Below, one piece after another: positions 3,382-3,815 of a DNA stretch of 3,815 bases. Source of the DNA: Escherichia coli (GTDB lineage Bacteria; Pseudomonadota; Gammaproteobacteria; Enterobacterales; Enterobacteriaceae); assembly GCF_003334335.1 (NCBI RefSeq), contig NZ_QOWQ01000081.1. One strand, 5' to 3'. The notes beneath the pieces were generated by a model. It was not told the origin of the DNA. It saw only the letters and a list, made by a program, of their open reading frames with translations, and did no database searches. The position numbers were made by a program, and so were the translations under genes. Position 1 is the stretch's first letter. The number at the start of each line of letters is the position of its first letter.

Positions 3382-3600
3382 AATTTATCTCCAAGGCAAG
3401 AAGAATAATCATTTTAGTATAAATTAATTCATGGTTAAAATATTAATGCATACAAAGTGCATTTTTTTATCTAAATCATCTCTTTTTTAATGGACACTTT
3501 TTGAGCCAATGGGTGATGTTATTTTTACATTTATGCATAGGAAATGAATTTTACACAAAATTCGATAATAAAAAACCTCAATCAGATATGTGTAAGAGGC
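3382..3600 (-). promoter_or_regulatory. AT-rich 5' region of the regulator gene (ribosome-binding site plus presumed promoter and regulatory sites)
   Basis: GGAG ribosome-binding site 7 nt before the ATG. About 220 bp of very AT-rich DNA with A/T tracts and a possible -10 TATACT (plus-strand AGTATA at ~3415-3420). I could not identify a convincing -35/-10 pair by eye, so this is a region call only. Confidence 0.3.
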
Positions 3601-3728
3601 CTTTGTAAGTATCCCACATAATAGAACCATTCACATTTAGAGATCTTCCGGCATACTCATTCGTAAGCGGCTCGCGAGGACTGTATTGATACTTACTGAG
3701 AGCTCAGATCAACTTTCCAGGGTGACAG

Positions 3729-3815
3729 TGATCTTACACAGCAATAGTGGACACGCGGCTAAGTGAGTAAACTCTCAGTCAGAGGTGACTCACATGACAA
3801 AAACAGTATCAACCA
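3729..3815 (+). mobile_element. IS3 (IS3 family) left end: left terminal repeat and start of orfA; element continues beyond the window
   Basis: TGATCTTACACAGCAATAGTGGACACGCGGCTAAGTGAGTAAACTCTCAGTCAGAGGTGACTCACATGACAAAAACAGTATCAACCA matches my recollection of the IS3 left end nearly base for base. It starts with the TG terminus at 3729. Confidence 0.8.
3794..3815 (+). CDS. IS3 OrfA (InsE-like transposase subunit), first 7 codons only (MTKTVST...)
   Basis: ATG at 3794 is preceded by AGAGG (3781-3785). The N-terminus MTKTVST matches IS3 OrfA as recalled. Truncated by the window edge. Confidence 0.75.

Follow-up and report, generated by a model that had tools for sequence, protein, structure and literature searches.

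Modules in which an AraC-family regulator controls an Aat system and adhesins are known on plasmids and on chromosomal islands (PMC7943197, PMC7478709), and Aat systems carried by chromosomal islands have been documented (PMC7943197). Sites of the AggR/Rns type follow the consensus WWWWWWWTATC, and the characterised activator site of aggR lies 73 bp from the start codon (PMC6392122). Here we describe the upstream region of a regulator of this type within a 3,815-bp stretch of E. coli DNA (the window), in which an IS3 element lies close to the regulator and reads away from it. The first-pass annotation of this DNA had suggested that so close an insertion could remove distal silencing or autoregulatory sites and change expression of the regulator. 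Comparison with loci that lack IS3 points elsewhere: the IS3 seems close to a virulence regulator, but it entered IS sequence that was already dead, and is not worth pursuing as a regulatory mutation.

The regulator and its chromosomal setting

The window derives from the E. coli chromosome: strain SW071611 (L001; L numbers denote locus copies used in the comparisons) matches it at 100% identity, and about 40 further complete genomes do so at 99.8-99.9%. It does not belong to a plasmid, matches in PLSDB being restricted to its IS portions, and an Rfam search of the window returned no RNA family. Its sole intact gene within 3.8 kb encodes the regulator; the debris to the left of that gene, and the features on which the argument below depends, are collected in Table 1.

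Table 1. Positions of the features of the locus, numbered from the first base of the window
Feature	Position	Strand	GC	Remarks
IS66-family right end	1-291			debris
IS600 transposase fragment	280-759			debris
EspI serine-protease autotransporter, internal fragment	800-1708	minus		debris
IS5-family remnant	~1700-2563			debris; frameshifted
Regulator CDS	2584..3381	minus		265 aa; RefSeq WP_021523955.1
Native AT-rich DNA	3382-3603		26.1%	222 bp; sole locus-specific upstream DNA
Sigma-70-like promoter candidate TTAACC-16-TAAAAT	3411..3438	minus		from promoter scan
Exact WWWWWWWTATC match ATTTTTTTATC	3461..3471	plus		inverted relative to regulator; 80-90 bp from start codon
Exact WWWWWWWTATC match TTTTTATTATC	3564..3574	minus		co-oriented with regulator; 182 bp from ATG
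IS-X left end	3604-3662	plus	37.3%	59 bp
IS66-family right end	3663-3728	minus	50%
CAG, IS3 target triplet	3726..3728			duplicated at far IS3 end
IS3 left end	3729-3815	plus	43.7%	window stops 87 bp into element

The regulator belongs over its full length, N-terminal domain included, to the Rns/CsvR/AggR subfamily of AraC regulators: in phmmer, residues 13-264 align with the solved CsvR (9gfp) and Rns (6xiu) at E about 1e-48, and the two C-terminal helix-turn-helix motifs are present (PF12833 and PF00165). It shares 37-39% identity with AggR/CfaD and 44% with its best homologue on a plasmid, and in a set of 5.8 billion proteins the regulator's own 100% cluster was followed only by relatives at 44-45% identity. 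A literature search with the protein accession returned nothing. The closest homologue (44% identity), on plasmid pRHB27-C20_3, lies near a fimbrial gene and a gene annotated as an anti-activator of the ANR family (Aar-like; L017 5597-5791); no ANR gene was noticed adjoining the regulator in the window.

To the right of the window lies an island (L001 16286-25316) that encodes, in aatPABCD order, a permease, a TolC-like protein, an adaptor, an ABC ATPase and an Lnt-like acyltransferase, together with a 115-aa hypothetical protein, AfaD and a fimbrial usher. The 115-aa protein, which matched none of the NCBIfam models, occupies the position of a dispersin/CexE-type substrate. Judged by gene content, the regulator and the island look like a chromosomal AggR-type regulon, found in 41 of 5,426 complete E. 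coli genomes; our searches found no paper describing such an island.

On its other side the regulator is closely hemmed in. Between its stop codon (2584) and the IS5-family remnant there is essentially no space for a native terminator (window 2573-2583). In five genomes (H73-H77) an IS2 lies ~6-10 bp 3' of the stop codon, so that the regulator stands between IS2 and IS3. For these five genomes we considered whether IS3 copies might form a composite transposon around it and rejected this reading, the downstream element being an IS2 with its own 5-bp duplication, TACTG, at window 2574-2578 (L016 3672-5002).

Layers between the regulator and IS3

Exactly 347 bp (3382-3728) separate the regulator start codon from IS3, whose left inverted repeat begins at 3729 with TGATCTTACACAGC and whose orfA, with its ATG at 3794-3796, reads rightward, away from the regulator. 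The inverted repeat and the ORF coordinates agree with the position, divergent orientation and distance given in the first-pass annotation, and the split that it drew between AT-rich and ordinary composition was borne out as well, at 26.0% GC for 3382-3600 and 43.8% for 3601-3728. Its description of the whole 347 bp as native upstream DNA stands only in part. The description fits the 222 bp of 3382-3603, whereas the DNA at 3604-3728 is made up of the termini of an element that we call IS-X and of an IS66-family element. GC content rises from 26% to 37% to 50% exactly at the layer boundaries, and the composition break falls near 3600 because native DNA gives way to IS debris there. As read from these alignments, a three-layer nest of IS ends very likely adjoins a short native promoter segment. 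Small ORFs of 20-47 aa in 3382-3728 had no support as genes, and none was Aar/ANR-like.

The layers can be told apart by where else they occur. In blastn searches with 3382-3661, full-length matches were confined to the 41 genomes that bear the locus, and the last ~59 bp of this query matched more than 1,100 other E. coli records at 84-95%; DNA to the right of 3603 is common to unrelated contexts. The 59-bp piece was found ~22 bp upstream of an IS3-family transposase CDS in three of these contexts, namely a plasmid, the pks island next to clbA in Nissle and an O157:H7 island. In a four-way alignment homology starts at TGTAAGTATCCC (3604), with unrelated DNA leftward, and is lost after 3662, where the other copies run on into orfA (ATG CGT AAA GCC...). 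The piece, TGTAAGTATCCC...CATACTCATTC (3604..3662), is the left terminus of IS-X, which was cut by the IS66-family element; an intact copy of IS-X measures ~1206 bp, has the ends TGTAAG...TTACA and encodes an orfA product that begins MRKARFTEHQ. As in IS3-family elements, it starts with TG, is the terminus common to complete copies and sits just upstream of orfA, the family assignment being that of the PGAP annotation only. A promoter-like sequence, TTCACA-16-CATACT (window 3630-3657, plus strand), lies inside the IS-X terminus and is directed toward the missing IS-X orfA; to judge by this placement it is probably the transposase promoter of IS-X itself, now reading into the IS66 remnant.

The remaining layer is the right terminus of an IS66-family element that points toward the regulator. 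Its terminal repeat GTAAGCGGCTCGCGAGG begins at 3663 and corresponds on the plus strand to GTAAGCGG, the terminal repeat of IS66 type. On the minus strand, from 3728 to 3663, this layer encodes the last 11 tnpC codons, LSPWKVDLSSQ (3696-3728), then the stop at 3693-3695, and 30 bp later ...CGCTTAC. A GTAAGCG-type terminal repeat ~30 bp beyond the tnpC stop is the geometry of an IS66 end, and it recurs at window 260-291 in an independent IS66-family end. Independent IS66-family copies and tnpC genes in many genomes match the locus from window 3661-3663 on, at 91-94%. The reading resumes beyond IS3 with PF13817, DDE_Tnp_IS66_C (L013 4209-4415), and in the RefSeq annotation of an empty-site locus a truncated minus-strand 'transposase domain-containing protein' spans the insertion point. 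The left part of the IS66-family element is missing in all loci, and with it the second junction, at which the 8-bp target duplication of the family would show.

These layer identities and junctions are direct observations, and the IS-X and IS66 junctions are identical in all 41 carriers and in every extra assembly and metagenome contig examined. Longer or IS-free upstream DNA was sought by megablast and blastn in the 5,426 complete E. coli genomes and in PLSDB, and by an exact 39-mer scan of ~100,000 species-representative genomes and a metagenome collection; contigs encoding the exact regulator protein were inspected for it as well. In all of these collections, native DNA past 3603 was absent from every copy found, with or without IS3.

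IS3 occupancy and rearrangement across genomes

IS3 occupies the identical base in 37 of the 41 carriers, and the site is empty in the other four (SW4848, EC24, MEI4BO-21 and GPEC874). Six further assemblies comprised five filled sites and one empty site, and four metagenome contigs three and one. The ~100,000 species-representative genomes yielded a single match, also filled, in an E. coli contig within a 'Collinsella' MAG. This 2.3-kb contig (L019, JAIJJM010000532.1, assigned to 'Collinsella sp.') is identical to the E. coli locus, IS3 junction included, and is evidently a binning contaminant. Selection, as well as shared ancestry, could account for the 90% frequency of filled sites.

The empty site of EC24 (L002) reads ggtgaCAG/atcgcg and the filled site of SW071611 (L001) ggtgaCAG/TGATC...GGATCA/CAG/atcgcg. 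CAG thus stands on both sides of IS3 in L001 and once in L002, L008 and L022, and the 3-bp duplication that the first-pass annotation had proposed to look for at the far IS3 end is there. The unoccupied sites and the CAG duplication prove that IS3 is a true insertion.

Thousands of annotated IS3 copies match the 87 bp of the element within the window at 95-99% identity, and the termini of the element are TG...CA, the far end being ...GTGGGTAGGATCA (L001). Products with HTH_Tnp_1 and rve domains, as expected of an orfA-orfB transposase with a programmed -1 frameshift and a DDE (rve) domain, are encoded at the same site (L007, L012-L015); the window itself holds the orfA start only, and the rest comes from these other genomes. 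RefSeq labels the element 'IS3-like element IS3 family transposase', and both IS3 and the truncated transposase are already in the RefSeq annotation. In L001 the element measures 1214 bp instead of 1258 bp, owing to a deletion of 44 bp between two CTGCGTGGAA repeats of orfB, and is annotated as frameshifted. It also carries a C-to-A change at window 3738, position 10 of the left inverted repeat (IRL), which reads TTACACAGC compared with TTACCCAGC in the intact L002 IS3 copy. Because of the IRL change and the orfB deletion (window 3738; L001 14220-14240), the SW071611 copy is probably decaying and immobile there; in other genomes an intact IS3 is annotated at the same site.

Some genomes carry rearrangements anchored in IS3, which can be read directly from the junctions. 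The far end of IS3 in L012 is flanked not by CAG/ATCGCG but by AAATGCCGC, toward a GGDEF gene and pgaA (L012 4330-4480), and these mismatched flanks imply recombination between two IS3 copies. In L010, IS3 ends after ~120 bp and is fused to unrelated DeoR/PTS DNA (L010 5380-5660). EC24 has a separate, intact IS3 of 1258 bp, inverted and on the other side of the regulator (L002 10526-11783). This second copy lacks a target duplication (flanks TAT / CGG) and replaces ~1.3 kb corresponding to window ~982-2280, with the EspI fragment and the IS5 remnant; its structure is that of an IS3-adjacent deletion. The demonstrable effect of IS3 at this locus is to serve, in some genomes, as a substrate for recombination and deletion.

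Regulator expression and comparison with known systems

The regulator promoter and any autoregulatory sites should presumably lie within the retained 222 bp. The sigma-70-like candidate in this segment is about 25-30 nt upstream of a GGAG Shine-Dalgarno (3389-3392). A promoter scan of 3300-3815 gave 3 promoter-like sites where 2.5 are expected, which is chance level, and no terminators; minus-strand candidates were confined to the native 222 bp, with none in the IS3, IS66 and IS-X pieces. The two exact WWWWWWWTATC matches, the only ones in the window, both fall in the native segment, where 0.29 would be expected (p about 0.03); under relaxed criteria site counts in the 222 bp were not above those of shuffles, and not significant. 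The 11-mer TTTTTATTATC is the same as the functional AggR site of the afaB promoter in EAEC 042. A -10 element at the spacing of the published AggR architecture (site, 21-23 bp, -10) was found for neither exact site. Autoregulation through these two candidate sites is plausible, and since the aggR site is merely 73 bp from its start codon, 222 bp could well suffice. As a useful by-product, the coordinates 3382-3603 presumably delimit with precision the minimal native DNA that holds the promoter of the regulator.

The native segment varies among genomes. Position 3537 is C in the window and the NCTC86 group and T in EC24, ECONIH1 and most other loci; IS3-filled genomes include carriers of either allele. 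Counted from the minus-strand site TTTTTATTATC, this base is about 24-27 bp downstream, a position at which a -10 might be expected. Further single-locus variants were seen at 3492, 3547 and 3587.

From the nesting of the three termini we infer an order of events. An AT-rich regulator cassette would have been bounded at 3603/3604 by the left end of IS-X; an IS66-family element would then have inserted 59 bp into IS-X and later have been truncated itself; and IS3 would have inserted 66 bp into the IS66 remnant, duplicating CAG, in an ancestor of most present-day carriers. The suggestion that IS3 could have removed distal silencing or autoregulatory sites is not supported by comparison with the IS3-free loci (four complete genomes, one other assembly and one metagenome contig), in which the insertion point falls within the IS66 tnpC remnant. 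The native region of these loci is 222 bp, below the ~350 bp up to which the first-pass annotation would have regarded the insertion as neutral. Because IS3 landed 125 bp beyond the native end, in dead IS sequence, it would have neither removed nor separated any native cis-regulatory DNA, and the AT-rich tract, the would-be H-NS target, is unchanged in extent and composition. Reasoning from the anatomy of the locus, we consider IS3 most probably neutral for expression of the regulator.

An effect of IS3 on expression would not have to involve loss of native DNA. The element adds 1.2 kb between the regulator and the IS66 remnant and aat-like side, and could block read-through to the regulator; an outward promoter, or a change in H-NS spreading or supercoiling, might act as well. 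The regulator indeed runs in the same direction as the IS66 tnpC remnant and the aat-like operon, IS3 separates it from them in 37 of 41 genomes, and IS3 was reportedly described as a mobile promoter by Charlier et al. in 1982. Even in the empty-site state, however, the aat-like operon lies beyond ~3 kb of other IS and intron debris as seen from the regulator, no promoter-like site within the first 87 bp of IS3 is directed toward the regulator, and the insertion is 125 bp past an AT-rich tract that it leaves as it was. We therefore regard such an effect as quite improbable. There is only a very slim prospect that insulation from IS66-remnant transcription, or an H-NS change, has reset the basal level of this AggR-like master regulator; filled and empty lineages would then differ in expression of adherence factors encoded by the neighbouring Aat-like and Afa/AAF-like genes. 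Strains with filled and empty sites form a natural pair for tests of regulator expression.

The idea of a truncated native upstream region may instead shift to the older IS-X boundary at 3603/3604, where IS-X, or the event that joined it to the cassette, could have removed distal sites such as a far-upstream activator site or an H-NS nucleation region. In every copy found, native DNA breaks off at an IS terminus that is only 222 bp away from the ATG, and Munson and Scott reportedly found in 2000 that Rns requires a site ~227 bp upstream of the point where its own transcription begins; a site equally far out would not be contained in the 222 bp. Yet no collection searched holds a longer native locus, so that nothing shows a loss, the aggR activator site is a proximal one, and two exact consensus matches have been kept. 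Such a truncation seems rather unlikely; if it did occur, every carrier would have a shortened promoter region, independent of IS3, and it is compatible with the neutrality of the IS3 insertion. We give hardly any credence to the reverse history, with a filled ancestral site and empty ones left behind by precise excision of IS3, even though the empty sites are the minority (4/41) and a further IS3 copy lies on the regulator's other side in the empty-site genomes. At the empty site CAG is single and intact and tnpC reads on without interruption, and precise excision is rare for copy-out-paste-in elements of the IS3 family. The other IS3 copy, with its different IRL base, its lack of a duplication and the adjacent 1.3-kb deletion, represents an independent event; under either history, moreover, IS3 sits in IS66 sequence.

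Insertion of IS3 into older IS debris, our preferred reading, places the locus among known systems. The element shares with IS3 of E. coli the imperfect TG...CA inverted repeats, an orfA that starts 65 bp inside the left end and the 3-bp duplication; the window copy differs by the C-to-A change in IRL, and the L001 copy by the 44-bp deletion in orfB. In gene order the neighbouring island resembles Aat systems (aatPABCD, an Aap/CexE-type substrate and Afa/AAF-type fimbriae), its control by the regulator being putative. The upstream region is like the autoregulated, H-NS-silenced promoters of aggR and rns in being AT-rich (26% GC) and in its two exact consensus matches, but differs from them in that no -10 lies 21-23 bp from the exact sites, and the protein is only 37-39% identical to AggR/CfaD. 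A regulator wedged between IS remnants, with sequential insertion of one IS into another, is also familiar from the nested IS 'graveyards' of pathogenicity islands and virulence plasmids; IS4, IS5, IS66 and IS21 elements likewise surround aggR on pHUSEC2011-2 and, on pRHB27-C20_3, the closest homologue of the present regulator. Unlike those graveyards, the locus described here is chromosomal, with 222 bp of unique upstream DNA and three stacked IS termini within 125 bp. It is a standard IS3 insertion in a nested-IS region typical of pathogenicity islands, whose nested anatomy is a new detail and not a new kind.
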